DNA of 64,000 nt from a bacterium (GCA_023266935.1 JAHFOF010000002.1:68623-132622), one strand, 5' to 3'. Shown: positions 21,764 to 48,096, numbered from the stretch's first letter. The notes: generated by a model not told the origin, from the letters alone. Program-made: numbers and translations.

Positions 21764-22355
21764 CTACTTCCCCTGCTTTCCTCTCTATTAAATCTGCTCT
21801 GCGTAAATTCTTTATTTGTTTGTTTGAGATAATCTTTATATGGGGAGATTTGTCCAACATTTCTACTAATTTAAACAAATCTTTTTCTGAGTTTCTCCAA
21901 TCTATTTTGATTTTGGACAAATCGAAGGGTTTAGAATAACTCCTTAAGGTTTTTTCTCCATTGGATAAAAAATATTCGTGAAAATAAGATAGGGCCAGCT
22001 CACGGATGGTTTTATAAATCGGCTCTCTGTATCTTAGAACTGCATGGTTGGTTTTGGATATGGCTCCCCAGTATCCCTGCCTACCGGCAGGCAGGCATCT
22101 TTCTCTAAACAAAGTTACTACATGGTCCACATCTTTATCTTCTGTGGTTTTTAAATCAAGTAAAAGTGGTTTGTATCCTTGTTTTTCTAGAGCCAACGCT
22201 GCGATGAGTGCTCCTTCAAAACAATGCGCCCTATTAATTTTTAAAGCTTTAGTCGGAGACATATATGTCTCACCGTCTTTTTCAAAATTAAAAGGTATTT
22301 GATTTATAAAATCCTGAATCTTCTTTGGCGTATTAAGATTAGAAAGTTTAAACAC
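21708..22355 (-). CDS. hypothetical protein, possibly a Cys-His hydrolase fold; carries palindrome copy 1
   Basis: CFEGALIAALALE...DHVVTLF; contains the in-frame LPAGRQG insertion. Confidence 0.35.
   Translation of the reverse strand: MFKLSNLNTPKKIQDFINQIPFNFEKDGETYMSPTKALKINRAHCFEGALIAALALEKQGYKPLLLDLKTTEDKDVDHVVTLFRERCLPAGRQGYWGAISKTNHAVLRYREPIYKTIRELALSYFHEYFLSNGEKTLRSYSKPFDLSKIKIDWRNSEKDLFKLVEMLDKSPHIKIISNKQIKNLRRADLIERKAGEVVNELPSKSRSFESRRKRG
22076..22095. repeat. 20-bp GC palindrome, copy 1 (one mismatch)
   Basis: cctgcctaccggcaggcagg inside CDS 21708..22355, encoding LPAGRQ. Confidence 0.8.
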
Positions 22356-22971
22356 CTTGGAAAAATGTCATGCGATCTTTTTTGAACCAAACCTCCGCAA
22401 TGCAAAATATACTATAAGTGATGAAGAAAGCTGAAACCACGTCTATGGTGTAGTGCAGATGAGAAAGCAAGACAACAACGGCGAAAGTTAAAGATAAAAT
22501 AATAAAGAAAATTCTCAAATATAAATCTTCCCAAAAAAGTAGGGCCATGAGAAATGGCAGGCCAGTATGACCGGAGAAGAATAAATCAGCTCCAAACATA
22601 AAATAACGCAGAAGACTGGTCGGATCTATAGTTATTTGATTTGGAAATGGAGCCAAATGGGTCAAAGTTAAAAAAACCGAACGAATAAAAACAAACAGAG
22701 CTATAGATTTGAGAACAAAAGGCAATCTCTTTGGATGAAGAACGCAGAGAGCAATAATGACCAAAACCAAAAACCAAGTGCCATAAACAAATATTTGATC
22801 TAAATCATAAACCTGTGTATTAGAGAGGACTATATCCGTGACAGAATTTGAAGCGCGTTCGTTCGCATAAACACCAGCATAAAAGTTCACTAGCAAGCTT
22901 CCAAAAAGTAAAACAAAACCAAAAAAGACTGATGTGAGAAAATCTTTATTTTTAAATGGTGAATTTTTCAT
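22348..22971 (-). CDS. PAP2-superfamily membrane phosphatase/transferase
   Basis: SGHTG and SHLHYTIDV match PAP2 motifs 2 and 3; 6 TM. Confidence 0.6.
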   Translation of the reverse strand: MKNSPFKNKDFLTSVFFGFVLLFGSLLVNFYAGVYANERASNSVTDIVLSNTQVYDLDQIFVYGTWFLVLVIIALCVLHPKRLPFVLKSIALFVFIRSVFLTLTHLAPFPNQITIDPTSLLRYFMFGADLFFSGHTGLPFLMALLFWEDLYLRIFFIILSLTFAVVVLLSHLHYTIDVVSAFFITYSIFCIAEVWFKKDRMTFFQGV

Positions 22972-22980
22972 TCGACATAA

Positions 22981-25143
22981 TTATAGCACCTCTTCGTATA
23001 CCCCCATGAGCTTTTTTGAGAGTGATTCTATGCTTTCCTTTTGGGCTAATTCAAGCGATCCACGACTAAGTTTGTCTCTTAAATTCTTATCTTCTAGTAA
23101 CCTCCCAAGTTTAATCTCAAACTCTTCGTCGTTTTTGGCTTTTAGACAATTTTCTCCATCGATTAACCATCCATTATAGACTGGTATATCTCGCACAAGG
23201 ATAGGTAACCCGACCGCTGCGGCCTCTAGAATAACCATGCCCTGATTCTCTTCGTATGAAGGAAAGATGAATATGTCTAAAGAATTAAAAGCTTCTAAAA
23301 CATCTTTGACATACCCGGTGAATTTTATGTTCGCCGATAAGTCTGTGGGCAAAGATTCTACAAGTGCTCCACTATAAATTTTGCCAAACCATCTGAACTG
23401 ATTAGGAAAAAACTTTTGAGCCAGTTTTAAAAAAGTATCTATACCCTTGCGCGGGATAGCTAGGGCCACCGTCCCCACCACTAACCCATCGAGTTTATAA
23501 TCACTTCGTCCAACTTGTCTCTTCTCTTCGCTTTTATAAAACTTTTTTAAATCTACACCATTAGACTGAACTCTGATCTTATTAGGATTAATTTTATAGT
23601 TGATAATTAATTTTCTAGTATATTCACTGGGGCAAAAAATGATGTCTGCTTGGTTATAGGCATAAGCCAAATATATTTTCATAATCGGCGAAAAGATACT
23701 ACTAAATCTAAACACTCCTCTGATATCTTCCGCAGTCACATGAGCCCAAACAATGATTGGCTTGCTCATCCTTCGAGCTTTCCTCATTAGATACAGTGAT
23801 TTGAGCCATGGAGTGTTGGTTTGAAAAATATCACAACTATCATCCCATTTTTCTGTATAACTAATATTCATATGCTCGAGCATAATTTTCTGATTTTTAT
23901 ATGAAGAAAGTAACCCCGTGCCAATATTCTTGAACAAGGCCCCTTTATTAAAATGTAGAAATTCGAGATACAAACAAACCTTTAACTTTTTCTTCGTTAA
24001 TTCAGTATAAATCTCTGCCAACTCCCTCCCCACCCTTTCGTATGAATACTCTAAAGCCAACCCACGAGAAGCGCGGTTCATATCACTCCACAACTTTTTA
24101 TCTTCTTTTAATTTCAATATATTTTTAGCTAAATCAAAAACATCATCTGCTTTGGACAAAAAACCACTTTCTTTCTTCACAATCTCAGATACACCCTTTT
24201 CTCCCACAGCTACTGTTGGGAGCCCAGCACTCATCGCCTCGAGGATAGTCAAAGGCATGTTTTCACTCTTGGAAGCAGTGATGAAAATGTCAGAGGCTTG
24301 ATAGGCTTCGAGCCACTCTTTACCCCTAATAAAACCTGTAAATCTGGCCTTATTTGAAATCTCTAAATCTTTGGCCAAGGTCTCAAGCCTGTCTCTATCT
24401 GGTCCATCTCCACCGATGAGCAGAGTTGTGTCCGGGCTCTCTTTGTGAACTAAAGAAAATGCTCTGAGCACCACGTCCACACTCTTCTCATAGCTCAATC
24501 GTCCAACATAAACGAGAGAAAAATCAGAAAGACCGAGTTTGTGTTTAAGGATTTTTTTATTTTCAGAAGAAGTTTCTACGAAAAAATCTGTATCTATGGC
24601 GTTCGCAAAAATCTTTGTTGGTTTTTTTAGCCCGTTTTTAATAAGTTCATCGGCCAAAGATTGAGACGGGCATAAAACCAAATCACAAAAATTGTAGTAC
24701 CAAACGGTATACTTCCAACTCAAATTTTTCCCAAATGAGTTGTCGAGAGCCACATACTTTAAATAATGGTCGTAGAAAGTATGGTGAGTACCCACGAGTG
24801 GTACTCTGAGTTTTTTTGAAGCCAACACCGCACTCCAACCAACAGAAAACGGAGTATGAGAATGGATGATGTCTGGTTTAAATTTTCTTAATTTGGCCAA
24901 AACTATTGGATCTAGAGGCATAGCCATCCTTTCTCCAGGATAAAATCCTAAAGGTATGGACGGAGAAAAGATAACTTTAAATTTATTATTCTTTTTTAAT
25001 ATTTTTTTATTCTTCTCACTCATCGCTGTCACGACCAATACTTCATGTCCTTGTTTGGTTAAAAATTCAGCCGAATGATACACTCCATAAGCTACTCCGT
25101 TTATTTGAGGAAACAATGTATCTGTGAAAATGGCTATTTTCAT
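22981..25143 (-). CDS. bifunctional glycosyltransferase with two tandem GT4 domains
   Basis: 720 aa; two GT-B family 4 modules (EAMSAGLPTVA and EAAAVGLPILV motif blocks). Confidence 0.8.
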   Translation of the reverse strand: MKIAIFTDTLFPQINGVAYGVYHSAEFLTKQGHEVLVVTAMSEKNKKILKKNNKFKVIFSPSIPLGFYPGERMAMPLDPIVLAKLRKFKPDIIHSHTPFSVGWSAVLASKKLRVPLVGTHHTFYDHYLKYVALDNSFGKNLSWKYTVWYYNFCDLVLCPSQSLADELIKNGLKKPTKIFANAIDTDFFVETSSENKKILKHKLGLSDFSLVYVGRLSYEKSVDVVLRAFSLVHKESPDTTLLIGGDGPDRDRLETLAKDLEISNKARFTGFIRGKEWLEAYQASDIFITASKSENMPLTILEAMSAGLPTVAVGEKGVSEIVKKESGFLSKADDVFDLAKNILKLKEDKKLWSDMNRASRGLALEYSYERVGRELAEIYTELTKKKLKVCLYLEFLHFNKGALFKNIGTGLLSSYKNQKIMLEHMNISYTEKWDDSCDIFQTNTPWLKSLYLMRKARRMSKPIIVWAHVTAEDIRGVFRFSSIFSPIMKIYLAYAYNQADIIFCPSEYTRKLIINYKINPNKIRVQSNGVDLKKFYKSEEKRQVGRSDYKLDGLVVGTVALAIPRKGIDTFLKLAQKFFPNQFRWFGKIYSGALVESLPTDLSANIKFTGYVKDVLEAFNSLDIFIFPSYEENQGMVILEAAAVGLPILVRDIPVYNGWLIDGENCLKAKNDEEFEIKLGRLLEDKNLRDKLSRGSLELAQKESIESLSKKLMGVYEEVL

Positions 25144-25144
25144 T

Positions 25145-25978
25145 TTAGAGTGAGTTAATCGAACTGTTGATTAAAAATTTTATCACTGCTTCGGCTGTGT
25201 TTTGTTGATAATGTGTGGCTACATAATGACCCTCGCCGATTCGAACTGTCTCTGAATTTTTAATATTTGTTCGCATATCGTTCACTTCTTTATCCGAAAT
25301 AAAATTATCATCCGCGCCGACTACAATAAGGGTTGGACAGTTTATTTTATAAATTGTGGCTCTATAATCCATCTTAAAAACCTCGGAGAGCATCCAGTAA
25401 TTTATTGATATGGGCATAGTGGCCAAGCCAGAGAAAGTACTCCTCCAGTATCCGGCATTTGTCTTGGGATTAAAGTAATAATACTTTTTCCTCGTTTGCC
25501 AAACCATAAACCAGCCAAACAAGTTTGTAATAAATCGAATAACTGGATTTAAAGGACCGAGCCAATGATACAGAAACTGGCTAGCATGATTCGTCGAGAT
25601 GAGTACCAACTTTTCTATTAAGTCAGGATTATTTATGGCCAAATCGATACCGATGTATCCACCATACGAATACCCCACTATAATCGCCTTTTCTAATCCT
25701 TCTTTTTTAATGATTTCTACTACATCATTCTTTAATACACCTATTTTGTATAAATTTCTTTTTCTTGTTTTATCAGATACTCCGTGACCGCGCAGATCTA
25801 TGGTCAAGATGTTAAACCCGGCTGATTTATAAAGGGCCAATGTTTCATCCCAAGTAGTGTGGTTTGAAGAAAGTCCGTGCAAAAAAACTATTGTTGATTT
25901 ATTTGTCTGTGGTGAGTTCGTCGAATCCGTCCAATAATAAATTTTGCCGTTTTGAGTTTCTAAATAATGCTCTGTCAT
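25145..25978 (-). CDS. alpha/beta hydrolase
   Basis: HGLSSN oxyanion region, GYSYGG nucleophile elbow, C-terminal His. Confidence 0.75.
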   Translation of the reverse strand: MTEHYLETQNGKIYYWTDSTNSPQTNKSTIVFLHGLSSNHTTWDETLALYKSAGFNILTIDLRGHGVSDKTRKRNLYKIGVLKNDVVEIIKKEGLEKAIIVGYSYGGYIGIDLAINNPDLIEKLVLISTNHASQFLYHWLGPLNPVIRFITNLFGWFMVWQTRKKYYYFNPKTNAGYWRSTFSGLATMPISINYWMLSEVFKMDYRATIYKINCPTLIVVGADDNFISDKEVNDMRTNIKNSETVRIGEGHYVATHYQQNTAEAVIKFLINSSINSL

Positions 25979-26544
25979 GGCTGTTCTTCTTTTTTATTGT
26001 AAAAATATATCCAAGCGAAGATAGAGAGCACTGCGAGGATAATAAAGACTGATGCTATAACATCCATAATGGATTTAATTCGAGTAATAGCATTTGCAAA
26101 GTAAAACCCAATGATGAGGAGACCGAGGGTTTTAGGCAACGTCCCAACTGTGTTCCAATAAATAAATTTTTTAAAAGGCATTTTCACCAGACCAGCAGCC
26201 ACGAGTAATGCTCCCCCAACTCCATGAGCCAGTTTACCCAAGAGAATTGATTTGCCTGGATGAGTATTTAGAACTTTCTCAAGTCTTTCTACATGACTTT
26301 CTTTTATCCTAAAATATTTACCCCAACGACGAACAAAAGGTTCTCCTCCCCATCGACCTATATAATAGTGCAAAGCATCAGACACGAGGTCTCCAAATAC
26401 TATGACCAAGTAAGCCGGCCACCAAGCCAGATAGCCCAAGGATACCCCCGCACCGGCGATAACTGTGATAATAGGCCCTTCTACGAAGGCCGCAAGAAAA
26501 AGCAACCAATACATAACCCCATTGTATGCTACACTCTGAATCAA
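25975..26544 (-). CDS. DedA/VTT-domain membrane protein
   Basis: LGKLAHGVGGALLVAAGLVKMPFKKF VTT motif. Confidence 0.7.
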   Translation of the reverse strand: MIQSVAYNGVMYWLLFLAAFVEGPIITVIAGAGVSLGYLAWWPAYLVIVFGDLVSDALHYYIGRWGGEPFVRRWGKYFRIKESHVERLEKVLNTHPGKSILLGKLAHGVGGALLVAAGLVKMPFKKFIYWNTVGTLPKTLGLLIIGFYFANAITRIKSIMDVIASVFIILAVLSIFAWIYFYNKKEEQP

Positions 26545-27245
26545 TGAAAGACGTCTACCCCATGAGGATAAATAAATATTTGGCTATGAAAAATCACTCC
26601 ACCAGACGAGGGGCTGATGAGCTAATCAAGAAACATCTAGTTTTAATAAATGGTCGCTTCGCTGTCCTTGGAGATAAGGTAGAGGAAGCGGACACTGTAG
26701 AAGTCAGAGCGAATAAAAAAGCATTAATTTATGAATACTATGCTTATAACAAACCAGTTGGCACAGTCACTCTCGCTCCAACATCAGGGCAAAAAGATAT
26801 TAAGGGTTCAATCAACCTCGCTGGAGTATTCCCCGTTGGACGACTTGATAAGGATTCACACGGATTGATTATCCTCACCAACGACGGACGCATCACCGAC
26901 AGACTTTTAAATCCGAAACACACCCACGAAAAGGAATATGTTGTAACTGTGAAAGAAAAACTGCGTGCAAATTTTAAAAATAAAATAGAACCGGGGGTGC
27001 AGATTGAAAATGAAAAAACTCTCCCATGTAAAGTCCAAATCCTCGGCGAGAAAAAATTTAGTATTGTTTTAGGTGAAGGCAAGAAACATCAAATCCGCAG
27101 GATGTGTTCGGCCTTGTTCGCCGAAGTCGAAGATCTGGAGCGAGTGCGGATTATGAATATTAAACTCGGTAAATTGGGTTCAAATCAATATAAAAAGATC
27201 GAAGGTGAAGAACTGGCTATATTTTTAAAATCTTTGGGGCTATAA
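26526..27245 (+). CDS. rsuA: pseudouridine synthase, RsuA/RluB family with S4 domain
   Basis: N-terminal S4 (RINKYLA...), catalytic GRLDKDSHGLIILTNDG. Confidence 0.85.
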   Translation: MLHSESMKDVYPMRINKYLAMKNHSTRRGADELIKKHLVLINGRFAVLGDKVEEADTVEVRANKKALIYEYYAYNKPVGTVTLAPTSGQKDIKGSINLAGVFPVGRLDKDSHGLIILTNDGRITDRLLNPKHTHEKEYVVTVKEKLRANFKNKIEPGVQIENEKTLPCKVQILGEKKFSIVLGEGKKHQIRRMCSALFAEVEDLERVRIMNIKLGKLGSNQYKKIEGEELAIFLKSLGL

Positions 27246-27247
27246 AT

Positions 27248-27691
27248 TTATCTGCTTAAATCTTTAAAAACTTCACCCGGTCTCATGTATTCATCTGTAA
27301 TTTGAGTAATCTTTAAATCATCACCAATATCAAAATTGTGTGTGGCATCTGTCATCACATCATCCAGGTGAGGACCGCATTCCTCTCGAACTTGAACAGT
27401 AAGCGGAATCATTCTTACCCCATGTTTATGAAAAAGTTGAATACGATGGTTGCCAGCTTCTAGGCGAAATTTTTTGTTTTTTAAACCGACGCGCATTATA
27501 AGTGGTTGATGCAATCCTTCTTCTAAAATATTTTCCCAGAGAGTATCCATATCTACAATCGTGCCGTCCATCAAATCCGCTTCTGGAGAAACGTCTCTCC
27601 CCCAATATTTCCAAACCCAATCGGTCGGAACAAGTTCAACCTTACCTTGTTTATATAAAGGATGCTTTTTCCAAAGTTCTCTGATTTCCAT
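27248..27691 (-). CDS. ParB/sulfiredoxin-like domain protein
   Basis: LEAGNHRIQ motif (ParB-type GxHR); 147 aa. Confidence 0.35.
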   Translation of the reverse strand: MEIRELWKKHPLYKQGKVELVPTDWVWKYWGRDVSPEADLMDGTIVDMDTLWENILEEGLHQPLIMRVGLKNKKFRLEAGNHRIQLFHKHGVRMIPLTVQVREECGPHLDDVMTDATHNFDIGDDLKITQITDEYMRPGEVFKDLSR

Positions 27692-27859
27692 ACAAATTTT
27701 TATTTCGCCTTCTTTGCTTTCTTTTTTTCTTTTTTGGGATGGGTATTTCCTTTGGCCATAAATTTAAAATATTTTAACGTCTTTATTATATCAAAAAATA
27801 TGATACATTGAGTATAGAGATAGCTGAAATACGCTTCAACTATCCGTTCACCTCTGATA

Positions 27860-28067
27860 AGGTCATGCGATGGAACCTGTCTTGGTCAGCCGATCGGAGT
27901 CTCCGAGCAAACCCTCGGGTACTGCCCCCTTTCCCACGCCCCAGAAGGGATCAGCCCCTTCCACCCCAACCGAGACCTCTTTCGAGGCCAAACTCGATTT
28001 CCTGCGCATGGCAGGAGTCGGAGCCTCATAAAGTTTCCCCACAGGAAGCAGCAATGCTTCCTTTTTT
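27860..28067 (+). ncRNA. candidate structured GC-rich non-coding RNA (unidentified family)
   Basis: About 200-nt GC-rich intergenic block with multiple hairpins (CCGAG..CTCGG, TCCTGC..GCAGGA). It ends in a GNRA-capped hairpin GGAAGCA-gcaa-TGCTTCC followed by TTTTTT, immediately before a consensus promoter. Confidence 0.35.
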
Positions 28068-28071
28068 ATGC

Positions 28072-28100
28072 TTGACATTATTATAATAATTTGATATAGT
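28072..28100 (+). promoter_or_regulatory. sigma70 consensus promoter for the pgsA-like gene
   Basis: TTGACA, 17 nt, TATAGT. Confidence 0.6.
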
Positions 28101-28138
28101 GGTGGCAAGTGCTCTTTCACTCATACGAGGACACAGAC

Positions 28139-28645
28139 ATGTCAATCAAGTGGATGCCGAACGCAGTGACAATCCTGCGCTTCGTGCTGTCGATTGTAGT
28201 CCTCTTCTATGCCCTACAAGCAGAGTGGACTACGGCAGCAATCTATTCAGCCATTGCTCTTGCGACCGATCCGTTCGACGGATGGCTTGCGGTCAAGCTC
28301 GATGCTCGGAGCAAGTTCGGGATCATCGCAGACCCAATTGCCGACTTTATGCTCACTGCGATGCAAATCGCTGGAGCAGTCTTCACCGAAGTCATCAATT
28401 GGACTACTGTTGGTGTGCTTTGCTTCTTCTTCCTCGCGACATGGCTCCCGGTCGTGCTCACGACTGGCGGAAGCAAGCTGAACAAGCTCGCACTAGGCAT
28501 TAACCGAACATACTATGTGGGAGTGGCGCTATGGTTCATCGGGCTCTACTTCTACATCGCATTCGGTACGGGTGCCTTGTGGCTCGTAGCCCCCGCCCTC
28601 CCGCTTGTGTGGTGGGGTGCTCGAATCAGCATAAGTCATCACTGA
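28139..28645 (+). CDS. CDP-alcohol phosphatidyltransferase (PgsA-like)
   Basis: DPFDGWLAVKLDARSKFGIIADPIAD = D(x)2DG(x)2AR...G(x)3D(x)3D motif; start at MSIKWMPN. Confidence 0.8.
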   Translation: MSIKWMPNAVTILRFVLSIVVLFYALQAEWTTAAIYSAIALATDPFDGWLAVKLDARSKFGIIADPIADFMLTAMQIAGAVFTEVINWTTVGVLCFFFLATWLPVVLTTGGSKLNKLALGINRTYYVGVALWFIGLYFYIAFGTGALWLVAPALPLVWWGARISISHH

Positions 28646-28658
28646 ACAATTTGTACCA

Positions 28659-28690
28659 AACGCGGAGGTCACTACGACTCCGCGTTTTTC
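28659..28690 (+). terminator. rho-independent terminator
   Basis: ACGCGGAG...CTCCGCGT followed by TTTTC. Confidence 0.6.
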
Positions 28691-28740
28691 ATTTCATATT
28701 CTTGAATAAAGCCCAATTCTGGGCTATTCTGTCCCCATCT

Positions 28741-28809
28741 GCCGGATCGTCTAATGGTAGGACACATCCCTCTGGAGGATGTTATCTTGGTTCGAGTCCA
28801 AGTCCGGCA
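28741..28809 (+). tRNA. tRNA-Gln (CUG)
   Basis: Cloverleaf with anticodon stem CATCC/GGATG and loop CTCTGGA; T-loop GGTTCGAGTCC; no encoded CCA. Confidence 0.65.
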
Positions 28810-28811
28810 AC

Positions 28812-29375
28812 ATGAAATTTATATATATAATAAAAAATTTCTTATTGGGACATGACTTTCAGGTTTCTTTTTGGTCAAGTATTGTTGTATCTGCACTTGT
28901 TGGTTTGGTTGTATATCAGTATACTGACGTTTTTAAATCACCAAATCTTAGTTTTGTAGTAAAACAAAATGGATTTTACAGAAATACCATTCTACTTACT
29001 GCAGATGGAGAAAATTATAAAGCAAGGTTTCAATTTGCAATCAAAAATAATGGGAATAAACCATTAAAATCAGGCGAGGGATACTGGCATTTGTATGTTC
29101 AAACAGATTCTCCGACACAATTTTCTGCACCTGAGGAAGAAAATCATAACAGAGGTATAATTTCTGGTACAATTTATCCAAACTCATTCTTAGATATTAA
29201 TCTTGTATACGAATTAATTATAAAAAAAGAAGATGTTAGGAAAAGAGAAATTCCGTATTTCTTTAGTACTGATTACGGGCAATATCCAAAAACAGCGAAA
29301 CTAGATCCAGAATCAGGTAAGGTATTTTTAAAAGATATGAACTATATTAGATTTGAAATACCAGAATCGAAATAG
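28812..29375 (+). CDS. hypothetical protein (AT-rich islet)
   Basis: Starts 3 nt after the tRNA-Gln end. Very AT-rich. The ORF-track start at 28779 lies inside the tRNA. Confidence 0.45.
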   Translation: MKFIYIIKNFLLGHDFQVSFWSSIVVSALVGLVVYQYTDVFKSPNLSFVVKQNGFYRNTILLTADGENYKARFQFAIKNNGNKPLKSGEGYWHLYVQTDSPTQFSAPEEENHNRGIISGTIYPNSFLDINLVYELIIKKEDVRKREIPYFFSTDYGQYPKTAKLDPESGKVFLKDMNYIRFEIPESK

Positions 29376-29383
29376 TTATTACG

Positions 29384-29725
29384 ATGAAGAACTATACTCT
29401 CCGATTCAAAGCGGTTGATAAGAAGAATTTTGATGAAGTTAAGAATGGTTTGAAAATAGTTGAAACTCGTGCAGCAACTGTAAAATATCAACCGATTGAA
29501 GTTGGAGACACTTTAGTCTTTGTTTGTGGAAAATACAGGCTGAAAAAGAAAATTACTAAAAAAGCTCGTTTTAAAAGTATAAACGCAATGGTAAAAAAGA
29601 TTCCATTTAAGAAAATTATGCCTTCAATCAAATCCGTGGCTGAAATGAAGCACGCATATTCATCATATTCAGGCTATGATGAAAAAATAAAAAAGTTTGG
29701 AATACTGGCTTTTTGGATTAAATGA
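29384..29725 (+). CDS. ASCH/PUA-like domain protein
   Basis: GLKIVETR matches the ASCH GxKxxExR motif; 113 aa. Confidence 0.5.
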   Translation: MKNYTLRFKAVDKKNFDEVKNGLKIVETRAATVKYQPIEVGDTLVFVCGKYRLKKKITKKARFKSINAMVKKIPFKKIMPSIKSVAEMKHAYSSYSGYDEKIKKFGILAFWIK

Positions 29726-30297
29726 AAATTTATTTTATAATTTTTGGACTATTGAATCTTTGCGCTCTGCTTGTTCAGTTTGTTCATTCACCCGATATAG
29801 TCGGATTTTTTAGTTTCTTCACTATCCTCGCGAACGCTTGTGCGACGGGGATACTGCTTTATCTTGGACTAAGCCACAAGAAAACTATCTCTATAAAAAC
29901 TGAAAGTTTTTTCGGAGCCACAACAGCTTATATGGTTCTCGTCGGGTTTGGATATTGGATGTTTCTTAGTAATGTGAAATACCCCATGATGCTTCCATTT
30001 GTGAATATTATGATTCATGCGGTCATGCCCATAGTCGTGATTATCGGCTGGTTCTTATATGAACATCAACACCGCCTTAACTTCAAACGAGCCACCAACT
30101 GGCTGATCTTTCCCTTCGTCTGGTTAATCTACACCTTTGTTCGTGGACCACTCGCTCATTGGTACCCTTATCCATTCTTCGACCCTCGAGGAATAAACGG
30201 ATACTCCGGAGTTTTTGAATACATATTAATCTTTACTCTCGTTCTTTACTTTGTCAGTTTGTTTATTATTTGGATTGGAAACAAAAAACAAAATTAA
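29722..30297 (+). CDS. hypothetical multi-TM membrane protein
   Basis: 191 aa, 5-6 TM; AT-rich. Confidence 0.45.
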   Translation: MKIYFIIFGLLNLCALLVQFVHSPDIVGFFSFFTILANACATGILLYLGLSHKKTISIKTESFFGATTAYMVLVGFGYWMFLSNVKYPMMLPFVNIMIHAVMPIVVIIGWFLYEHQHRLNFKRATNWLIFPFVWLIYTFVRGPLAHWYPYPFFDPRGINGYSGVFEYILIFTLVLYFVSLFIIWIGNKKQN

Positions 30298-37340: not shown

Positions 37341-38243
37341 TTATAGCTCTTTTTCAGCCTCTATAAATTCATCCAAATCACCATTTAGGACTTTTTCTAT
37401 TTGAGAAGTTTCAACGTTGGTTCGGTGGTCTTTGACCATTTTGTATGGATGCAGAACGTACGAACGGATTTGGTTTCCCCATTCAATCTGCGTTGTTTTA
37501 GAAATATACATCCCCTTTTCTTTCGCCTTCCTCTCTTCGTCTCGAAGTTTATAAAGTTTGGCCGAAAGCATCATGAGAGCTTTCTCTTTATTCTGCGCTT
37601 GACTGCGTTCTGTCTCTACATGCACGGCGAGGTTCGTGGGGATGTGGACCACACGCACGGCTGTCTCTCGTTTGTTCACATTTTGTCCACCCGGACCAGA
37701 TGATTTAGAAGTCTCAACTCGAATTTCTTCTGGAGGAATCTTTAGTTCATCTGGTGTTTCAAATTCGGGTATCACTTCAACCATAGAGAAAGATGTGTGT
37801 CGCAAATCCTTGGCACTAAATGGAGAGATACGCACGAGTCGATGCACGCCGGATTCATTCTTCAATGTCCCGTATGGACCTTTTGCCTCCTGCCTGCCGG
37901 CAGGCAGGTCAATCTCAATCGTGATGTTTCTGTATCCACCATGGTCATTCGTATTTTTGTGCAGAGTTTTAAAACTCCAACCTTTCTTCTCTATATATTT
38001 CATATACATTTCTAAAAGTATCCTAGAGAAATCTTCAGCGTCATCTCCACCAGCTCCAGAAAATATAGTCATCACTGCACTGCCCTTGTCATACTTTCCT
38101 CCTCCTTCCTTTTCATCTTTTAAATTTTGAATTTCTCGAATAATCGCTTGGGCCTTATCTTTGTCCAACCAAAAATCCGCCGAGCTCATCTCCGCTTCTA
38201 GTTCCTGAATTTTCTTATCTATTTCATTATTTGAAATTGTCAT
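37341..38243 (-). CDS. prfB: peptide chain release factor 2 (short N-terminal domain, no frameshift site)
   Basis: SPF tripeptide motif, GGQ motif (SGPGGQNVNK), HRLVRISPF. 300 aa. Contains palindrome copy 2, encoding DLPAGRQEA. Confidence 0.8.
   Translation of the reverse strand: MTISNNEIDKKIQELEAEMSSADFWLDKDKAQAIIREIQNLKDEKEGGGKYDKGSAVMTIFSGAGGDDAEDFSRILLEMYMKYIEKKGWSFKTLHKNTNDHGGYRNITIEIDLPAGRQEAKGPYGTLKNESGVHRLVRISPFSAKDLRHTSFSMVEVIPEFETPDELKIPPEEIRVETSKSSGPGGQNVNKRETAVRVVHIPTNLAVHVETERSQAQNKEKALMMLSAKLYKLRDEERKAKEKGMYISKTTQIEWGNQIRSYVLHPYKMVKDHRTNVETSQIEKVLNGDLDEFIEAEKEL
37889..37908. repeat. 20-bp GC palindrome, copy 2 (perfect)
   Basis: cctgcctgccggcaggcagg inside prfB. Confidence 0.85.
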
Positions 38244-39629: not shown

Positions 39630-39690
39630 GCGGCTGTACCCGCCCGAACGTGCCGAAGCACCTTCGGTACGGGCGGGGCTCAACGGTAGA
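39630..39690 (+). pseudogene. partial duplicate of the tRNA-Asp 5' end (nt 1-9 and 10-22) interrupted by a 39-nt GC-rich hairpin
   Basis: GCGGCTGTA + CCCGCCCGAACGTGCCGAAGCACCTTCGGTACGGGCGGG + GCTCAACGGTAGA. The flanks are identical to the intact tRNA-Asp at 39926. Confidence 0.7.
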
Positions 39691-39695: not shown

Positions 39696-39935
39696 ATGCA
39701 CATTGTATACGTTTTACAAGACGAAAAGGGTAAGTTTTACAAAGGACTTACAAATAACCTTGCAAGACGTTTCAGTGAACATAAAAGAGGAGAAACAATT
39801 ACAACTTCAAAAATGAGTGGGTTGAAAATTGTTTATACTGAAGAATATGACTCCTTCGAAAAAGCCCGAGCAAGAGAAGTGTACCTAAAAACTGCTGCGG
39901 GACGAAGGTTTCTGAAAAATAAATTGCGGCTGTAG
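39696..39935 (+). CDS. small GIY-YIG nuclease-domain protein (UPF0213/YhbQ-like)
   Basis: IVYVLQDEKGKFYKGLTNNLARRFSEHKRG GIY-YIG motif; 79 aa. The stop codon lies inside the first 10 nt of tRNA-Asp. Confidence 0.75.
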   Translation: MHIVYVLQDEKGKFYKGLTNNLARRFSEHKRGETITTSKMSGLKIVYTEEYDSFEKARAREVYLKTAAGRRFLKNKLRL

Positions 39936-40000
39936 CTCAACGGTAGAGCACTCCCCTGTCACGGGAGAGGCCGTGGGGTCAGCACCCATCAGCCGCGCCA
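39926..40000 (+). tRNA. tRNA-Asp (GUC)
   Basis: GCGGCTGTAGCTCAACGGTAGAGC...CTCCC-CTGTCAC-GGGAG...CAGCCGCGCCA with encoded CCA; unusual T-loop GTCAGCA. Confidence 0.75.
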
Positions 40001-40004
40001 AACC

Positions 40005-40170
40005 AAAAAGTCCAGATTTATTCTGGTCTTTTTTATACCTTTGCCGAGCTGAAGAAATGTTTAAATGACATTTCGTTGGGTGCTGAGGGCGCAGGCCGAC
40101 GGGCCGAGCCGGGGTCGCGCAAATCCCGACCACGGGATTATGTGTGATCAGACCACCCATCATCCGCGCA
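40005..40170 (+). repeat. 166-nt direct repeat R1 (cassette-junction element ending in a tRNA-Asp 3'-like core)
   Basis: About 97% identical to 40846..41012. Internal hairpins GAAATGT..ACATTTC and AATCCCG..CGGGATT. 3' end CCACCCATCATCCGCGCA. Confidence 0.85.
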
Positions 40171-40244
40171 TCTGAAAAGACCCTTAGAAATACGGGTCTT
40201 TTTCTGTAGAGAAATGAGACGTTAGAAATGATACACTCAATTAT

Positions 40245-40814
40245 ATGGAAAAAGTACCAGGACAATATGAAACCGAAGGTTTTATACCATTTGAACAATC
40301 CCTTCAAATGGCTCGAAAACTCATGGAAGATCATGAAGACGAATTGATAAATATCCGCGCTGCACTTCCCGAAGAAGATCGAGAGGCAATTAGATTTAAT
40401 GGAAGTTCCATTGAACACCACTTGAATAAGTTTCCTAAAGAAACACTAAAAAGATTTTGGGGACATGGAATTTTCAGAGGCGACGCAGAAAAAAATCTTG
40501 CGGCGCTGATTAATGTTATCCAAAATAAAAGTATAAAAGGTTCTATTGCCACCCTTGTTGATAGTGGTTATTATGATGCCGCAAAGGATGGCGATTTTTT
40601 AGTTCTTTCACACGCAGACACCACGCTCGCTGTGTTGAATGAAAACGGCAAACCTATCTTTAATGAAATCGGTTTAGTTATTAACGCTGGAGCCTATGTG
40701 GTAAATGCGAAGCTTTATCCAATAATTGATGATTTGAAGGTTCTTTTTCCTGATGCAAATATTCTCATGGCAAATGAAGTTCCTGAGTATGTGAATAGTG
40801 AAACTGGAGTTTAG
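40245..40814 (+). CDS. hypothetical protein (cassette 1 cargo)
   Basis: 189 aa, soluble, no family recognised. Confidence 0.45.
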   Translation: MEKVPGQYETEGFIPFEQSLQMARKLMEDHEDELINIRAALPEEDREAIRFNGSSIEHHLNKFPKETLKRFWGHGIFRGDAEKNLAALINVIQNKSIKGSIATLVDSGYYDAAKDGDFLVLSHADTTLAVLNENGKPIFNEIGLVINAGAYVVNAKLYPIIDDLKVLFPDANILMANEVPEYVNSETGV

Positions 40815-40845
40815 TTCTCACTTCATACACTAGCCCGCGCTAGGT

Positions 40846-41012
40846 TAAAAAAGTCCAGATTTATTCTGGTTTTTTTATACCTTTGCCGAGCTGAAGAAAT
40901 GTCTAAACGACATTTCGTTGGGTGCTGAGGGCGCAGGCCGACGGGCCGAGCCGGGGTCGCGCAAATCCCGACCACGGGATTATGTGTGATCAGACCACCC
41001 ATCAGCCGCGCA
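40846..41012 (+). repeat. 166-nt direct repeat R2
   Basis: Second copy; 3' end CCACCCATCAGCCGCGCA is almost identical to the tRNA-Asp 3' end. It is preceded by the 21-nt junction cttcatacactagcccgcgct, which recurs at 41723..41743. Confidence 0.85.
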
Positions 41013-41033
41013 AAACTTGGTATAATTCAAAGA

Positions 41034-41735
41034 ATGATACCTCTGAAGTTTGTTTATCTCGTCGGTCTTGTTCCCATAGGAATTGCATGGCTCGTTCTTT
41101 ATTTTCAGCGCAGTGATTTAAGAAAGGAAATGCTCTGGATGAGTTCTCTGATGGCATTCGGAAGCTTTGTCACTTCGTATTACTTTTGGACAAAAGATTG
41201 GTGGAGGCCGTTAACGATAACTGGTACTAGAGTTGGTATTGAGGATATTCTGCTCGGGTTTGCTATTGGTGGAATTGAGGCGGTTATATATGAGGTGGTA
41301 TTTAAAAAGAAATATTATAAAAGAAAACTTCATCCTCATAATTTTTTGTTGCCGCTTCTGCTCTTAATCCAGCTTATTACTTTTTTATTCTGGGGTGTAG
41401 GGCTAACATCTTTTTGGTCCTGTGTATTGTCCTTAATTTTGGTTTCTACGGGTGTATTTATTATAAGAAGAGATTTGTTAATGAACGGAATCTTATCTGG
41501 AATACTAACTATGTTAATTGCCATGTTAGATTACTACTTCATCATGCTCATTTCTCCCCAATGGATAGATCACACTTATCTTTCATCTTTAAGTGGCGTT
41601 AGAATAACGGGAATACCAATAGAAGAACTAATATTCTGGTTTTTGGCTGGATTGCTGTTTGGCCCTTTATATGAATACTGGCAGGGTAAAAGATTGGTTG
41701 GCATTAAGAAATCCAGTTCCAACTTCATACACTAG
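41034..41735 (+). CDS. multi-TM membrane protein with two lycopene-cyclase-domain-like repeats (tentative); cassette 2 cargo
   Basis: Repeated ...GIEDIL... and ...GIPIEELIFWFLAG... blocks resembling the PxEE motif of CrtYcd-type domains. Start moved past the repeat. Confidence 0.35.
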   Translation: MIPLKFVYLVGLVPIGIAWLVLYFQRSDLRKEMLWMSSLMAFGSFVTSYYFWTKDWWRPLTITGTRVGIEDILLGFAIGGIEAVIYEVVFKKKYYKRKLHPHNFLLPLLLLIQLITFLFWGVGLTSFWSCVLSLILVSTGVFIIRRDLLMNGILSGILTMLIAMLDYYFIMLISPQWIDHTYLSSLSGVRITGIPIEELIFWFLAGLLFGPLYEYWQGKRLVGIKKSSSNFIH

Positions 41736-42158
41736 CCCGCGCTTCCATAATTTAAAACAGAAAAGCCCCACGCAGGTAAGCTATGAGGCTTCTCTGCTTG
41801 GGGCTCAAACCGATCGACCAACTGATGCAACTTCGAGCTTCCAGGTGTGTTTCTTGTCTGGAACGAACATATGACTCACGTGTGCACCTCCAGCAAGAGC
41901 AACCGTCCGAACAAGCCAGCCACCAGGAACCTTCAAGCGATGCGAGAAGGACCTGGAATCCTGGAAGTTTTGGACATCGTCCATCACTTGAATCCTTTCC
42001 CACATAGAGGCTCCTTTTGTCTGAAGTTGTAGTTGAGAACTGACTTTTTATATGATATCACACAATTATTATATAGTCAAGCGTATTGCTAAATCTTTAA
42101 CCTAATTCCAACCTCATACACCCTCGGCCATAGTCTATAGACGAGGCTGACCCGCGCA

Positions 42159-42851
42159 TTAAATAACCTTAAACTCTTTAAACACTGCCTCGTATTGGGC
42201 GATGGTTCCTTTTGCCTCGCGGTCATTCAACTGAAAACTTGCACCATCATGAGCAATGCGATTTCTGATCTTATGAGCATCCCAAGCAGATTGGAGGGAA
42301 AGGAAATCACTTGGTTCAACCGACTGCAGTTTGTCCCCTATTGAACCTTCGTGGTGTCCTGATGCAGTGAGAAGTTCGTCGAGCATGATATCTGCTTCGA
42401 GTATCGCCTGTCTCCAATCTGATTCGTTCGTTGAATTAATAAGTCTTTGGATATTTTCCCACCTTAAATTCTTTACTTCCAATTCAGCTTCACCTGATAA
42501 TGTTTCTGGTTTGCCAAATGTGGTTTCTTCTGTCTTCTCAATCTCCTTTAATTTTTTAGAATTATAATAAATCCCTACAAGACAGAGAACCCCCACAACC
42601 ACCGACAAGATTTTTATAATCGGCCATAGGTAAGTCAAAAAATAATCCACCACCGCAGACCAAATCATAGAAAACGTGTCACCAGTATAAAAAGCTAGAA
42701 GTTGTTGGATACGAGAAATAACCAGCCAGATAAAAAACACCATGAGGACTAGAACCAAAACCTCTATCATTCTATCTGGGCCAACTGCTTTCTTTTTGTC
42801 TTTATCCATAAAATTCTTTGCTAGCTTTGAAAATATTATCCTCTCGACCAA
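42159..42851 (-). CDS. hypothetical membrane protein
   Basis: 3-4 TM N-terminal region plus a soluble C-terminal domain. Confidence 0.4.
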   Translation of the reverse strand: MVERIIFSKLAKNFMDKDKKKAVGPDRMIEVLVLVLMVFFIWLVISRIQQLLAFYTGDTFSMIWSAVVDYFLTYLWPIIKILSVVVGVLCLVGIYYNSKKLKEIEKTEETTFGKPETLSGEAELEVKNLRWENIQRLINSTNESDWRQAILEADIMLDELLTASGHHEGSIGDKLQSVEPSDFLSLQSAWDAHKIRNRIAHDGASFQLNDREAKGTIAQYEAVFKEFKVI

Positions 42852-44199
42852 GATCTCCTATTAATTCTATACCCAAAGGCAAATCGTTTTCCTTTCCGAA
42901 AGGGAGAGTAATACACGGACACCCCGTCACATTCGCAGGCACGGTAAAAATATCTTCAAGATACATATCAAGCGGAGACGACCTCTCTCCAAATTTAAAG
43001 GCACTAGACGGAGTAGTTGGGAGCAAAATCAAATCCACTTTTTTAAACGCTTCCCTAAATTCTTTTCTAATCAAACTCCGAACATTTTCAGCCGTCCCAT
43101 AATACGCATCATAGTATCCAGAAGAAAGCACATATGTGCCGAGAATAATTCTTCGACGAACCTCTTTACCAAATCCAACTCCGCGAGTTTTAAAATAATC
43201 ATCTATCCCATTTTCTCCTCCCACTCGAAGTCCATATTTCACTCCATCAAACCGGGCCATGTTTGAAGAAATTTCTGCTGGCACGATAACATAATAAACA
43301 GCCAATGAGTATTCTATAGTCGGAAATTCGAGGTCTATGACCTTGTATCCGAGAGATTCAAATCTTTTTATAGCTTCCTCCACATTCTTCTTTGTATTTT
43401 CACTGGCTTTGTTTATAAACATCCTCGGCACTCCGATGGTTTTATCAAAATTCTTTTGTTTGGGATAAATTTCTTCGGTGATGGTTGTGCTGTCTAGTGA
43501 ATCAGGGCCTCTTAAAACTTCATATATTAATTCAGCATCTTCAACAGTCTTAGAAAATGGACCAATCTGGTCAAATGAAGAAGTCATGGCCATAAGTCCC
43601 GAACGAGAAATTCGCCCATATGTGGGCTTGAACCCCACCAAACCACAGAATGAGGCAGGTTGTCTGATAGAACCCCCCGTATCTGAACCTAGGGCTCCGA
43701 GGACCATTCCTCCAGCCACAGCGGCTGCCGAACCACCAGAAGAACCCCCAGAAACACGAGTTTGATCCAGTGGATTTTTGGTAGGACCGAAGGCGCTGTT
43801 TTCTGTAGAAGAACCCATCGCAAATTCATCACAATTCGTTCTTCCAAAAATAATTGCTCCAGCTTCTTGAAGTTTATTCACTGCTGTAGAATTCGTCGGA
43901 GAAACAAAATTTTCAAGAATTTTTGAACTCGCGCTCGCATGTTCTCCGGCGACAGTGATGTTGTCTTTCAGGGCGATTGGGATACCGAGGAGAGGTAAAT
44001 CAATTCCCTCTTTGATTTTCTTGTCTGCTTCATCTGCTTGATCCAAAACATTTTTAAAAATTTCTAGGAAGGCATGAATGTTTCCATCCTTATCCTTAAC
44101 TGCATCAATACAAGCTTGAGTTAATTCTCTAGATGAAAACTTTTTGGCTTTCAGAGCTTCTCTGGCCGACTGAATAGTAAGTGTTGAAAGGTCAATCAT
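42802..44199 (-). CDS. gatA: Glu-tRNA(Gln)/Asp-tRNA(Asn) amidotransferase subunit A
   Basis: Amidase signature GGSSGGSAAAVA, Ser-cisSer-Lys triad context. Confidence 0.9.
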   Translation of the reverse strand: MIDLSTLTIQSAREALKAKKFSSRELTQACIDAVKDKDGNIHAFLEIFKNVLDQADEADKKIKEGIDLPLLGIPIALKDNITVAGEHASASSKILENFVSPTNSTAVNKLQEAGAIIFGRTNCDEFAMGSSTENSAFGPTKNPLDQTRVSGGSSGGSAAAVAGGMVLGALGSDTGGSIRQPASFCGLVGFKPTYGRISRSGLMAMTSSFDQIGPFSKTVEDAELIYEVLRGPDSLDSTTITEEIYPKQKNFDKTIGVPRMFINKASENTKKNVEEAIKRFESLGYKVIDLEFPTIEYSLAVYYVIVPAEISSNMARFDGVKYGLRVGGENGIDDYFKTRGVGFGKEVRRRIILGTYVLSSGYYDAYYGTAENVRSLIRKEFREAFKKVDLILLPTTPSSAFKFGERSSPLDMYLEDIFTVPANVTGCPCITLPFGKENDLPLGIELIGDLGREDNIFKASKEFYG

Positions 44200-44486
44200 A
44201 GAATTTTCTTCACTTTTATATAATCACCTTCTCGAGCTGGAGCATTTTCCAAAATTTTTTCTGTATGAATACCAGAATCATGAGCGTTTTCATCTGCACG
44301 CAAAACGTTTTTTAAAGCATAATCTTCTGAATTTTTATCTTTCAGACTTTCTAACTTTGAGACTTGTTTAATTTCCCCAACATAGCCTAAAATGGCTTCG
44401 AATTCGGTCGAAAGTTCCTCCGCTTCTGCATCAGAGATTTCTATGCGCGCCAGCTTGGCCAATTTAAGCACTTCTGCCTTATTCAT
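44196..44486 (-). CDS. gatC: amidotransferase subunit C
   Basis: 96 aa; MNKAEVLKLAKLARIEISDAEAEE; translationally coupled to gatA. Confidence 0.8.
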   Translation of the reverse strand: MNKAEVLKLAKLARIEISDAEAEELSTEFEAILGYVGEIKQVSKLESLKDKNSEDYALKNVLRADENAHDSGIHTEKILENAPAREGDYIKVKKIL

Positions 44487-44490
44487 ATGG

Positions 44491-46984
<2,494 letters not shown>

Positions 46985-46985
46985 T

Positions 46986-47510
46986 TTAGTGCCAATTTAA
47001 AATATTCTCTCTAATCTGAAATTGTCTAGACAAAAGGCCTTGACTCCAACTCATTCTAACCGTAACTGAAATTTCATTGGCATTTATTTGCTCGAGTTGG
47101 ATTTCTCTTCTGAACGGTGTGTTGGCCCACGAGGCTGTATATCCATAAAAACCCGTCCCACTATCCTCTTTCAAGATCGCACAACTTCCGAAGTCTCCTG
47201 AACAAGCGAGGACCTGATTATTAACTGCATCAATAGTACAAGTTTTACCAAAATAGCATGGGTCATTGGAAGTAGAAGCAAATCCGGTCAACCAATTTTG
47301 CTTTTTTAGACCGTTTTCATCTCGCATATTTCTGATTTGTTCTACTCCTTCACCGGCCAAATAGAAAGCGATAATCTGATCCCTAGAAAGAGTAGACAGA
47401 GAAATACCACTTTGAGCTGCACTGAAAGCAGCCGTAATGATAGTAATAAGAATAGTAATAGCTACTAAAGTTTCAATTAAAGTAAAGCCGTTGTGCAGGG
47501 ATTTTTTCAT
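46986..47510 (-). CDS. type IV minor pilin/pseudopilin
   Basis: NGFTLIETLVAITILI class III signal peptide. Confidence 0.75.
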   Translation of the reverse strand: MKKSLHNGFTLIETLVAITILITIITAAFSAAQSGISLSTLSRDQIIAFYLAGEGVEQIRNMRDENGLKKQNWLTGFASTSNDPCYFGKTCTIDAVNNQVLACSGDFGSCAILKEDSGTGFYGYTASWANTPFRREIQLEQINANEISVTVRMSWSQGLLSRQFQIRENILNWH

Positions 47511-47511
47511 A

Positions 47512-48096
47512 CTAGTTGTCTATTAATCTTTGGGAGGCCATGGATTCCAAGGTAAAACTCGTTCGGGTATTAGATTTGGTTCCAGCATCTCCACTAATCT
47601 TGATCAAAGCCTTCGGTTGTAGTGTGTCAGCTGGATAAGAATTCGCCCCGATAACATAAAATGTGAGGCTACTGATATTTATTTCTGGTGCAGTGACTGC
47701 CACATAAGTATTTCCTCCGTCCACTGATTTTTCCATAGATGAACCGTTTAATCTATATACAGTTTGCACTCCTTCACTCGACAGGAAACTAATGAAAGAA
47801 TCTCCAAGTGAACAATTTTGAGGAAGAGACAAAGAACCAGTAGAACCACAATGGTAGTTTCTACCAAAACGAATTTCTCTGGTCATCGTTTCCACAGCAA
47901 AGTTTAGATTATCCATCACAGTCTTCGCTGATTCGGCTTTTTTATTCGCATCAAAGATTCCCAGAAGCGCGCCCATACTAATCATCATCACCACCATAAA
48001 AACCGTGAGGGAAGTCATCATTTCAATAAGAGTAAATCCCTGCCTGCCGGCAGGCAGGCTTTTTTCATTCTTTGGTTTTAAAAATTTTATTTTCAT
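47512..48096 (-). CDS. type IV minor pilin/pseudopilin; carries palindrome copy 3 in the leader
   Basis: QGFTLIEMMTSLTVFMVV; LPAGRQ immediately before the cleavage Gly. Confidence 0.7.
   Translation of the reverse strand: MKIKFLKPKNEKSLPAGRQGFTLIEMMTSLTVFMVVMMISMGALLGIFDANKKAESAKTVMDNLNFAVETMTREIRFGRNYHCGSTGSLSLPQNCSLGDSFISFLSSEGVQTVYRLNGSSMEKSVDGGNTYVAVTAPEINISSLTFYVIGANSYPADTLQPKALIKISGDAGTKSNTRTSFTLESMASQRLIDN
48039..48058. repeat. 20-bp GC palindrome, copy 3 (perfect)
   Basis: cctgcctgccggcaggcagg in the prepilin leader-coding region. Confidence 0.85.

Follow-up and report, generated by a model that had tools for sequence, protein, structure and literature searches.

A 64,000-nt window of bacterial DNA (GCA_023266935.1 JAHFOF010000002.1:68623-132622, with coordinates counted from its first letter) carries a perfect 20-bp palindrome, CCTGCCTGCCGGCAGGCAGG, inside three unrelated genes, which encode a conserved hypothetical protein, release factor 2 (RF2, the product of prfB) and a minor pilin (Table 1). 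From the names on its closest RF2 relatives, we judged the host organism to be probably a member of the Parcubacteria, Zambryskibacteria/Minisyncoccota-like. An earlier reading made from the sequence alone had reported this palindrome, and its count was confirmed: two copies in the window are exact and one has a single mismatch, and 100 dinucleotide-preserving shuffles of the window contained no match at all, even with up to three mismatches. The base composition given by the sequence-only reading needed correcting for the palindrome, which is 80% GC (16 of 20 bases) and not 65%; its figure of about 40% for the genome agrees with the 40.7% of the window.

All three copies lie inside open reading frames (ORFs) of the minus strand and are translated in the same frame as L-P-A-G-R-Q, in agreement with the translations first proposed for the hypothetical gene, prfB and the pilin leader ahead of its cleavage site. 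The mismatch of copy 1 is a synonymous GGC to GGT change on the coding strand. A fourth copy with this same change lies outside the window in the same genome, ~7 kb beyond the window's start, at 8661-8680 of L239 (L-numbers denote the sequence loci compared; L239 belongs to this genome, the others to other genomes or viral contigs). Its host is a transketolase C-terminal subunit, again read in the LPAGRQ frame (...FYESEN-LPAGRQ-DHKVTIIATG...), which makes 4 copies in ~74 kb of this genome.

Table 1. Copies of the palindrome, their host genes and the GIY-YIG/tRNA-Asp cassette in the window
Feature	Coordinates	Strand	Description
Host gene 1	21708..22355	-	Conserved Parcubacteria hypothetical protein; insert context LFRERCLPAGRQGYWGA
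Copy 1	22076..22095	none	One mismatch, CCTGCCTACCGGCAGGCAGG; in host gene 1
Putative compensating +1 base	22096..22106	-	Coding strand AGAGAAAGATG, against AAACAAGATG in orthologue L243
Host gene 2	37341..38243	-	prfB, RF2, 300 aa; TIGR00020, SPF and GGQ motifs; insert context EIDLPAGRQEAKGPYG
Stretch downstream of copy 2 on the coding strand	37873..37888	-	AGGCAAAAGGTCCATA, apparently one base longer than the empty allele AGGAAAAAGTGTTTAT
Copy 2	37889..37908	none	Exact; in RF2 gene, frame LPAGRQ
Relic tRNA-Asp 5' fragment	39630..39690	+	GCGGCTGTA ... GCTCAACGGTAGA, interrupted by GC-rich hairpin
Cassette hairpin, 39 nt	39639-39677	+	Arms CCCGCCCG/CGGGCGGG; different from the 20-mer
GIY-YIG nuclease gene	39696..39935	+	79 aa, stand-alone, UPF0213/YhbQ-like; PF01541 E=2.8e-12
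Intact tRNA-Asp	39926..40000	+	First 22 nt duplicated in relic upstream of GIY-YIG gene
Host gene 3	47512..48096	-	Prepilin-type protein, PF07963; leader MKIKFLKPKNEKSLPAGRQG, then FTLIE
Copy 3	48039..48058	none	Exact; 10 nt past the ancestral start codon of the minor-pilin gene
Probable ancestral pilin ATG	48066..48068	-	Now out of frame; from comparison with orthologue L244
Replacement pilin start codon	48094..48096	-	Overlaps stop of upstream pilin gene (ATGA)

The pilin gene belongs to a type IV pilus cluster (PilD, PilC, PilT, PilB, PilM and others at 48.7-56.8 kb). Its closest orthologues (73-78% identity) start MKKG/FTLIEMM, with a leader of 4 aa, whereas the window protein starts MKIKFLKPKNEKSLPAGRQG/FTLIEMM, with a leader of 20 aa. 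Removing exactly the 20-mer from the window gene gives ATG AAA AAA GGA TTT ACT (MKKGFT), the start of L244. Because its exact deletion restores this L244-like start, we conclude that the 20-mer landed just past the ancestral ATG and shifted the frame. The upstream ATG (48096-48094) keeps the gene open after this frameshift of 20 bp.

The hypothetical protein of host gene 1, named transglutaminase-like by one source, had no match in Pfam or NCBIfam. The insert is missing from 118 of its 120 best homologues, which read LFK-QD-GYWGA where the window protein reads LFR-ERCLPAGRQ-GYWGA, a net gain of 7 residues; some relatives carry a PPAGG-type insert at the same turn. When the nucleotide sequences were aligned, the conserved GATG^GATA was intact in the orthologue L243 and split by the 20-mer in the window. 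One extra A four bases upstream of copy 1 would restore the frame after a 20-bp insertion, as judged against L243, a 76%-identical orthologue and not the direct ancestor.

The ORF at host gene 2 has prfB as its best NCBIfam match. It is a single ORF with no frameshift site, and in this lineage RF2 has only ~292-300 aa, its N-terminal domain being shorter than in the RF2 proteins of ~365 aa whose structures are solved. Aligned with those structures, the insert falls opposite a 7-residue gap that separates two beta-strands shortly before the SPF loop, in line with the earlier remark that the loop of E. coli RF2 is shorter here (an AlphaFold model was poor, with a pLDDT of 59.6 and no confident placement of the insert, so the solved structures were used instead). 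There is no insert at this place in 81 of the 120 best RF2 homologues, which read EIE-GK-NVYG. The closest homologue of all, P0002/L201 (85% identity), is one of these 81, reading GAG ATT GAA GGA AAA AGT GTT TAT, and the residues beside the insert change from GKSV in this empty allele to AKGP in the window. A 20-bp insertion with one further base in the adjoining A/G run fits both this comparison and that of two other Parcubacteria RF2 genes, L159 (filled) and L160 (empty).

Taken together with the nearest pilins, which also lack the insert, these orthologue alignments show that the copies are insertions and not ancestral protein sequence. They also show, by comparison of filled with empty sites, an inserted unit of exactly 20 bp with no duplication of the target, as is evident when the pilin gene is set beside L244 and the hypothetical gene beside L243. 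The same holds where a copy interrupts a relic tRNA next to an intact one (L037, L106, L118 and L235): the insert is exactly 20 nt and the target is not duplicated. Flanking target-site duplications, for which the sequence-only reading had proposed a check, were absent from the aligned sites. A one-base duplication was considered, since each of the four copies in this genome has the same base on either side, and was rejected because copies in other genomes do not. Since a primary insertion of 20 bp shifts the frame, 'in-frame', the term used by the sequence-only reading, describes the state after rescue and not a property of the element: coding copies show either a new upstream start or, when internal, one extra base in an adjoining A-run, for a net gain of 7 residues. 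The extra base would explain why the flanking residues differ (GKSV/AKGP; QD/ERC).

The 20-mer has independently hit RF2 genes of more distant Parcubacteria. In L159 it lies two residues away from the window position, and the close sister L160 is the empty one; L169 has two copies, and L132 has the 20-mer at a different site. The tip of this RF2 beta-hairpin is an insertion hot spot. Other GC-rich palindromes or quasi-palindromes at the same tip encode PAFAKASAG, PTSHKASQG, PASRRATQD, HPSTSSGS and NPPTGG in other relatives, and a hairpin of CCCGCC/GGCGGG type is inserted in the RF2 gene of L122. At least five different GC-rich hairpin inserts were seen at the tip among close relatives (L121, L122, L123, L126, L129, L153, L240-L242). 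Genes with an insert and genes without one are found mixed together at protein identities of 94-100%, and in one pair, L121 and L240 (99.4% identical DNA), TCCGCCAACTGGCGG, a palindrome other than the 20-mer, replaces ATC. Alleles that bear an insert have in common a palindromic GGTCCC-TAC-GGGACC (GPYGT) instead of the usual NVYGT.

We then took the exact 20-mer to one genome per species, 596 Gb in all. It was present in at least 120 stretches of bacterial genomes, where fewer than one copy would be expected by chance at even base composition (our own estimate), and 35 viral-contig stretches contain it as well; together with the shuffles of the window, this places its frequency far above chance. 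The sequence-only reading had not noticed this spread over many phyla, the most striking feature of the 20-mer. Among the matches listed, the hosts were Patescibacteria, Omnitrophota, Planctomycetota, Nitrospirota-like bacteria, delta- and gamma-proteobacterial metagenome-assembled genomes and Bacteroidota, the last including cultured isolates of Winogradskyella, Flagellimonas, Longitalea and Flavivirga. Closed genomes in which it occurs include the curated WWE3 genome MEWB01000001 and that of Winogradskyella echinorum. Among the GC-rich hairpins of Parcubacteria loci (917 kb), the 20-mer is also the one that recurs most often; its density is ~1 per 18 kb in the window and ~1 per 115 kb in related loci. 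An identical sequence across phyla implies horizontal spread of an agent or a mechanism that the hosts share.

The flanks of dispersed copies are unrelated to one another, and outside the gene-dense genomes of candidate phyla most copies are intergenic. Certain contexts are enriched among the copies (n=167 or 171) over positions drawn at random from the same loci. A tRNA gene lies within 400 nt of 16 of 167 copies (5.1 +/- 2.0 at random), an inverted repeat of at least 7 nt flanks 14 of 171, so that the copy forms the tip of a larger hairpin (3.75 +/- 1.95), and a direct repeat, again of at least 7 nt and frequently made up of tandem 7-8-nt words, flanks 19 of 171 (5.3 +/- 2.2). Short tandem-word flanks of this kind surround the 20-mer in L050, L058, L101, L204, L225 and L227. 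In L018 and L042 one 20-mer interrupts a second one close to its midpoint, so that the nested pair spans 40 nt. The 'tRNA' contexts are relic 5' fragments upstream of intact tRNAs; insertion into working tRNAs was rejected, since removal of the 20-mer restored a tRNA recognisable by ARAGORN only in L030.

Some viral contigs have arrangements of their own. On one (L228), ARAGORN calls a tRNA-Met at 2239-2330 with the exact 20-mer in its variable region, the sole apparently complete tRNA case. On another (L237), 11 perfect tandem copies of a relative of the palindrome, CCATGCCTACCGGCAGGCAGG, with a 21-nt period, occupy 3911-4142 and reach the contig end. L224, L231 and L232 are one 29.5-kb viral contig with six copies of the 20-mer. 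Some copies, on this contig and in L031, are part of a longer repeat, CCCGTAG-[20-mer]-GGGCGGCACAATCTAGCCC, a unit with a GTAG tag that resembles the repetitive extragenic palindromes (REPs).

Another way to view the palindrome is through the peptide that it adds. All three of its reading frames are open, and the two others encode cysteine. The sequence-only reading suggested that the coding of LPAGRQ on both strands may explain why the insert is tolerated; this does not suffice, for the other two frames are open too and yet are rare in long ORFs. In long ORFs of low-GC genomes we counted ~15 cases of the LPAGRQ frame and 3 of the others, and this predominance of one frame, although all three are open, suggests that selection acts once the insert is in place. 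LPAGRQ, with its central Pro-Ala-Gly, is turn-friendly and cysteine-free, which suits such a role. Synonymous and non-synonymous changes are mixed in mutated copies, of which there are few.

Close to prfB, the window contains a cassette in which a small GIY-YIG nuclease gene stands between a relic tRNA-Asp, interrupted by a GC-rich hairpin, and an intact tRNA-Asp (Table 1). The closest solved structures to its protein are the UPF0213 proteins 1ywl and 1zg2. The module of relic 5' tRNA, GC hairpin, GIY-YIG gene and intact tRNA recurs in L126, L147, L155, L162 and L199, whose hairpins are of the CCCGCC/GGCGGG type. In four further loci, L037 (WWE3), L106, L118 and L235, it is the exact 20-mer that sits in the relic tRNA, within 60 nt upstream of the start of a homologous GIY-YIG gene, and in L077 a variant of the 20-mer lies upstream of such a gene. 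By our own estimate from GIY-YIG gene density, chance would place fewer than 0.2 of 167 copies so close, against 4-5 observed. GIY-YIG homologues in related loci are tRNA-adjacent in 14 of 25 cases and occur ~1 per 57 kb of Parcubacteria DNA; the tRNA-linked gene looks like a prolific selfish cassette.

We consider it probable that the 20-mer is a non-autonomous miniature mobile palindrome, without loop or orientation, that is copied to new sites as an exact 20-bp unit. Empty orthologous sites, the exactness of the unit, dispersal over genes and phyla, nesting, and the enrichment at hairpin tips, direct repeats and tRNAs are all observed. Insertion would take place into single-stranded or hairpin-extruded DNA, such as replication forks, tRNA-like DNA and slippage-prone repeats, and would be catalysed in trans by a structure-specific enzyme. 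Because the genome is gene-dense most landing sites are coding, and because 20 bp shift the frame only those coding copies that are immediately rescued survive. Rescue would come from a +1 base in an adjoining A-run, from an alternative start codon or perhaps from transient slippage on the A-run. The surviving copies would further be confined to leader peptides and to surface turns that tolerate them, and it would be the Leu-Pro-Ala-Gly-Arg-Gln frame, out of the three that are open, that survives. On this reading the peptide is a by-product rather than a function.

As to the enzyme, the sequence-only reading had offered, as an alternative, that an activity such as the nearby GIY-YIG nuclease propagates the palindrome. 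The part of this that stood is the presence of the 20-mer beside homologous genes at four loci of other genomes; the window's own cassette did not bear it out, its hairpin being a different one. The link between the 20-mer and GIY-YIG genes may be called an association, not a demonstration. Because tRNA-linked cassettes carry a GC hairpin, often the 20-mer, just upstream of the start codon, a small UPF0213-type GIY-YIG protein is the most plausible mobilising enzyme, although as a candidate it is a doubtful one. A broader version would have UPF0213/YhbQ-type GIY-YIG proteins in tRNA-targeting cassettes as the autonomous partner of GC-rich hairpins of 20-40 bp, the 20-mer included, pasting them into hairpin-forming or single-stranded DNA in many phyla; this we hold to be unlikely. 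Were it true, it would provide a GIY-YIG counterpart of the RAYT/REP system and a role for a widespread orphan nuclease family, whose activity would reshape surface loops of essential proteins in the streamlined genomes of candidate phyla.

Several points weigh against a mobile palindrome and its proposed mover. The compensating +1 bases come from diverged orthologues, and we found no near-identical pair of genomes differing by the 20-mer alone, the closest empty RF2 being 85% identical; a near-identical filled and empty pair was found only for another palindrome (L121/L240). We thus infer recent movement of the 20-mer and have not seen it directly. The essential prfB would also have had to survive a frameshifted intermediate. 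The hairpin beside the GIY-YIG gene is not the 20-mer in the window and in related Parcubacteria loci, no GIY-YIG gene lies within 8 kb in most Bacteroidota and other loci with the 20-mer, and GIY-YIG nucleases are not known to carry out strand transfer. The enzyme is so far only a candidate.

A possible, if unlikely, alternative, raised already by the sequence-only reading, is homing or nicking, in which the tRNA-linked GIY-YIG cassette ends in the palindrome or is recognised or cleaved at it, and dispersed copies are by-products of the nuclease cutting structured DNA and of subsequent repair. This would account for the 20-mer (four loci) or its variant (one) in relic tRNAs directly upstream of GIY-YIG homologues, and for the GC hairpin found in every cassette with a recognisable relic in an unbiased Parcubacteria set. 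It fits, too, with the presence of the cassette type of hairpin, CCCGCC/GGCGGG, in the L122 RF2 gene, and UPF0213/Slx1-type GIY-YIG nucleases are structure-specific enzymes. Homing, however, requires flanking homology, of which dispersed copies share none, and the hairpin takes varying positions in the relic (nt 9, 14, 21, 22 and 31), so there is no fixed cassette end. The hairpin at the window's GIY-YIG gene also differs from the dispersed 20-mer, and the relics may be merely rare neutral, hairpin-prone DNA that tolerates insertions.

That the 20-mer is a selected DNA or RNA signal (an uptake-sequence pair, a terminator, a hairpin for RNase III or a site bound by a protein), kept in genes only where the protein tolerates it, seems improbable to us. 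The 20-mer does form a stable predicted hairpin, of -8 kcal/mol as DNA, a T-run follows copy 3 on the + strand, and genes for a type IV pilus as well as ComF-like competence genes are present in the window; the uptake sequences of other bacteria also show a reading-frame bias in genes. But uptake signals are lineage-specific, whereas this sequence is identical in many phyla, its density is low, it arrives as a frame-breaking 20-bp insertion and not by point mutation, and it is not obvious what signal its nested copies, or those in dead tRNA relics, would give. Rfam yielded no family that overlaps any copy, and this, with all four copies of this genome lying within ORFs, also speaks against a known structured RNA or an intrinsic terminator. 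GCCGGC as a target of restriction or methylation, as first suggested, was rejected on counting: the hexamer occurs 6 times in the window against 4.4 expected, with no over-representation.

We regard as very improbable a convergent local origin, in which replication slippage or template switching builds each copy afresh, unrelated to the others by copying. The sites do adjoin homopolymer runs and repeats, and several different quasi-palindromes occur at the RF2 tip across lineages, but an identical 20-mer at unrelated sites in different phyla, so far in excess of chance, is not expected of such a process, and the empty sites contain no local template. Finally, we give practically no credence to LPAGRQ as an ancestral or functional protein motif with secondary DNA identity, or to the copies as assembly artefacts: although the same peptide is in four proteins of this genome, orthologues lack it, its host proteins have no relation to one another and belong to different compartments, many of the copies found elsewhere do not encode protein, the RF2 with its insert is recorded identically by NCBI, Logan and ENA, an orthologous RF2 copy with one mutation comes from an unrelated farmland metagenome (L203), and frame-restoring changes would not be expected alongside an artefact.

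Three other repeats were seen in the window. Between convergent ORFs, a perfect GC-rich 26-bp palindrome (14970-14995) precedes a T-run; it is an ordinary bidirectional terminator unrelated to the 20-mer. CACCGCCNNNGGCGGGAC occurs three times (8265-8282, 13285-13302 and 18360-18377), whereas chance would give no copy. It is probably not a mini-insertion, as two copies belong to a common N-terminal peptide, NPITASGGTPQNAV, of otherwise different ORFs (12744-13331 on the minus and 18349-20202 on the plus strand); the third is intergenic, beside a tRNA-Ser. A 142-nt direct repeat (40029-40170 and 40871-41012; 98% identical, GC-rich, with tRNA-like ends) flanks an ORF of unassigned function (40245-40814) and had no match in Rfam even at E<=1.

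The significance of the mobile palindrome that we favour is that 20 bp would mark a lower size limit of DNA behaving as mobile. The material at hand for studying it comprises an exact unit without duplication, filled and empty sites, a natural frameshift-and-rescue series in essential genes (RF2, transketolase, pilin), an RF2 hot spot at which hairpins of several families appear and disappear among near-identical genes, and a candidate enzyme. The inserts add LPAGRQ-type loops to conserved proteins of candidate phyla and can lead gene prediction astray, since starts move and frames seem to break. Some of the 'lineage-specific insertions' that protein alignments of these bacteria display may be due to them.

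Among the papers searched, none contained the 20-mer or the peptide LPAGRQ, and nothing relevant turned up on palindromic in-frame insertions or on GIY-YIG with tRNA in candidate-phyla bacteria. We compared the 20-mer with known kinds of small repeat. HIP1 (GCGATCGC) and DNA uptake sequences, of 8-12 nt and lineage-specific, are likewise short GC-rich palindromic words over-represented in genomes, genes included (PMC5861425, PMC4390886). They arise, however, by point mutation and biased conversion or uptake, whereas the 20-mer is an inserted block of 20 bp; and uptake sequences number ~1 per kb within a lineage, a pattern that the 20-mer, with its many phyla and its densities of ~1 per 18 kb and ~1 per 115 kb, does not follow.

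The sequence-only reading had likened the palindrome to a miniature Rickettsia palindromic element (RPE). RPEs (Ogata et al. 2000) are 100-150 bp long, restricted to Rickettsia and in-frame as inserted (PMC3733652). The outcome is indeed alike, namely palindromic selfish DNA that is translated in-frame within functional genes of a small genome, where the protein surface tolerates it (PMC3733652). The likeness did not extend to size or to insertion in frame: the 20-mer is 20 bp long, shifts the frame and needs a second change for rescue, and with a Parcubacteria host and many phyla besides it is not an RPE.

REPs and REPINs are imperfect palindromes, specific to a species or genus, with RAYT transposases (PMC3116915, PMC3733652). 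The 20-mer is like them in that both are palindromes of 20-40 bp with many copies, occasionally intragenic (PMC3116915, PMC3733652), and a nuclease gene flanked by a repeat that the nuclease may mobilise offers a possible parallel to REP/RAYT. The neighbouring enzyme in the window is, however, a GIY-YIG nuclease and not a tyrosine HUH transposase, and no Y1 transposase, RAYT or HUH gene turned up in Pfam scans covering 50 of the window's 74 ORFs. Membership by tag was not borne out: among 172 copies, GTAG occurred within 3 nt of 6 and CGTC of 6, and no flanking tetranucleotide (offset up to 4 nt) exceeded 9 of 344 sides. A miniature inverted-repeat transposable element derived from a DDE transposon was also rejected, as no target-site duplication was found in the pilin gene, the hypothetical gene or the four tRNA relics.

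The mobile G+C clusters of yeast mitochondrial DNA, reportedly described by Weiller and colleagues (1989) and by Wenzlau and Perlman (1990), measure 30-60 bp and are reported to duplicate a short target. They too are short GC-rich palindromic clusters that spread through a gene-dense, AT-rich genome; they may be present in one strain and missing from another, are often nested and can lie in-frame in a protein gene (var1). They differ from the 20-mer in their size, in the target duplication reported for them, in being organellar and in having unrelated sequences.

The closest known kind appears to be the small dispersed repeats (SDR) of the cyanobacterium Nostoc and its relatives, reportedly characterised by Elhai and colleagues in 2008 as very small mobile repeats of 21-27 nt. 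The resemblance covers a non-coding unit of ~20-27 nt (20 nt here), dispersed, present or absent between relatives, nested and often embedded in tandem repeats of ~7 nt; a transposase is known for neither. The 20-mer would nevertheless be distinct from SDR in its sequence and in being a perfect loop-less palindrome. SDR are known from one cyanobacterial group, whereas the 20-mer is identical across many phyla, is translated inside essential genes, and is linked to tRNA relics and GIY-YIG cassettes.

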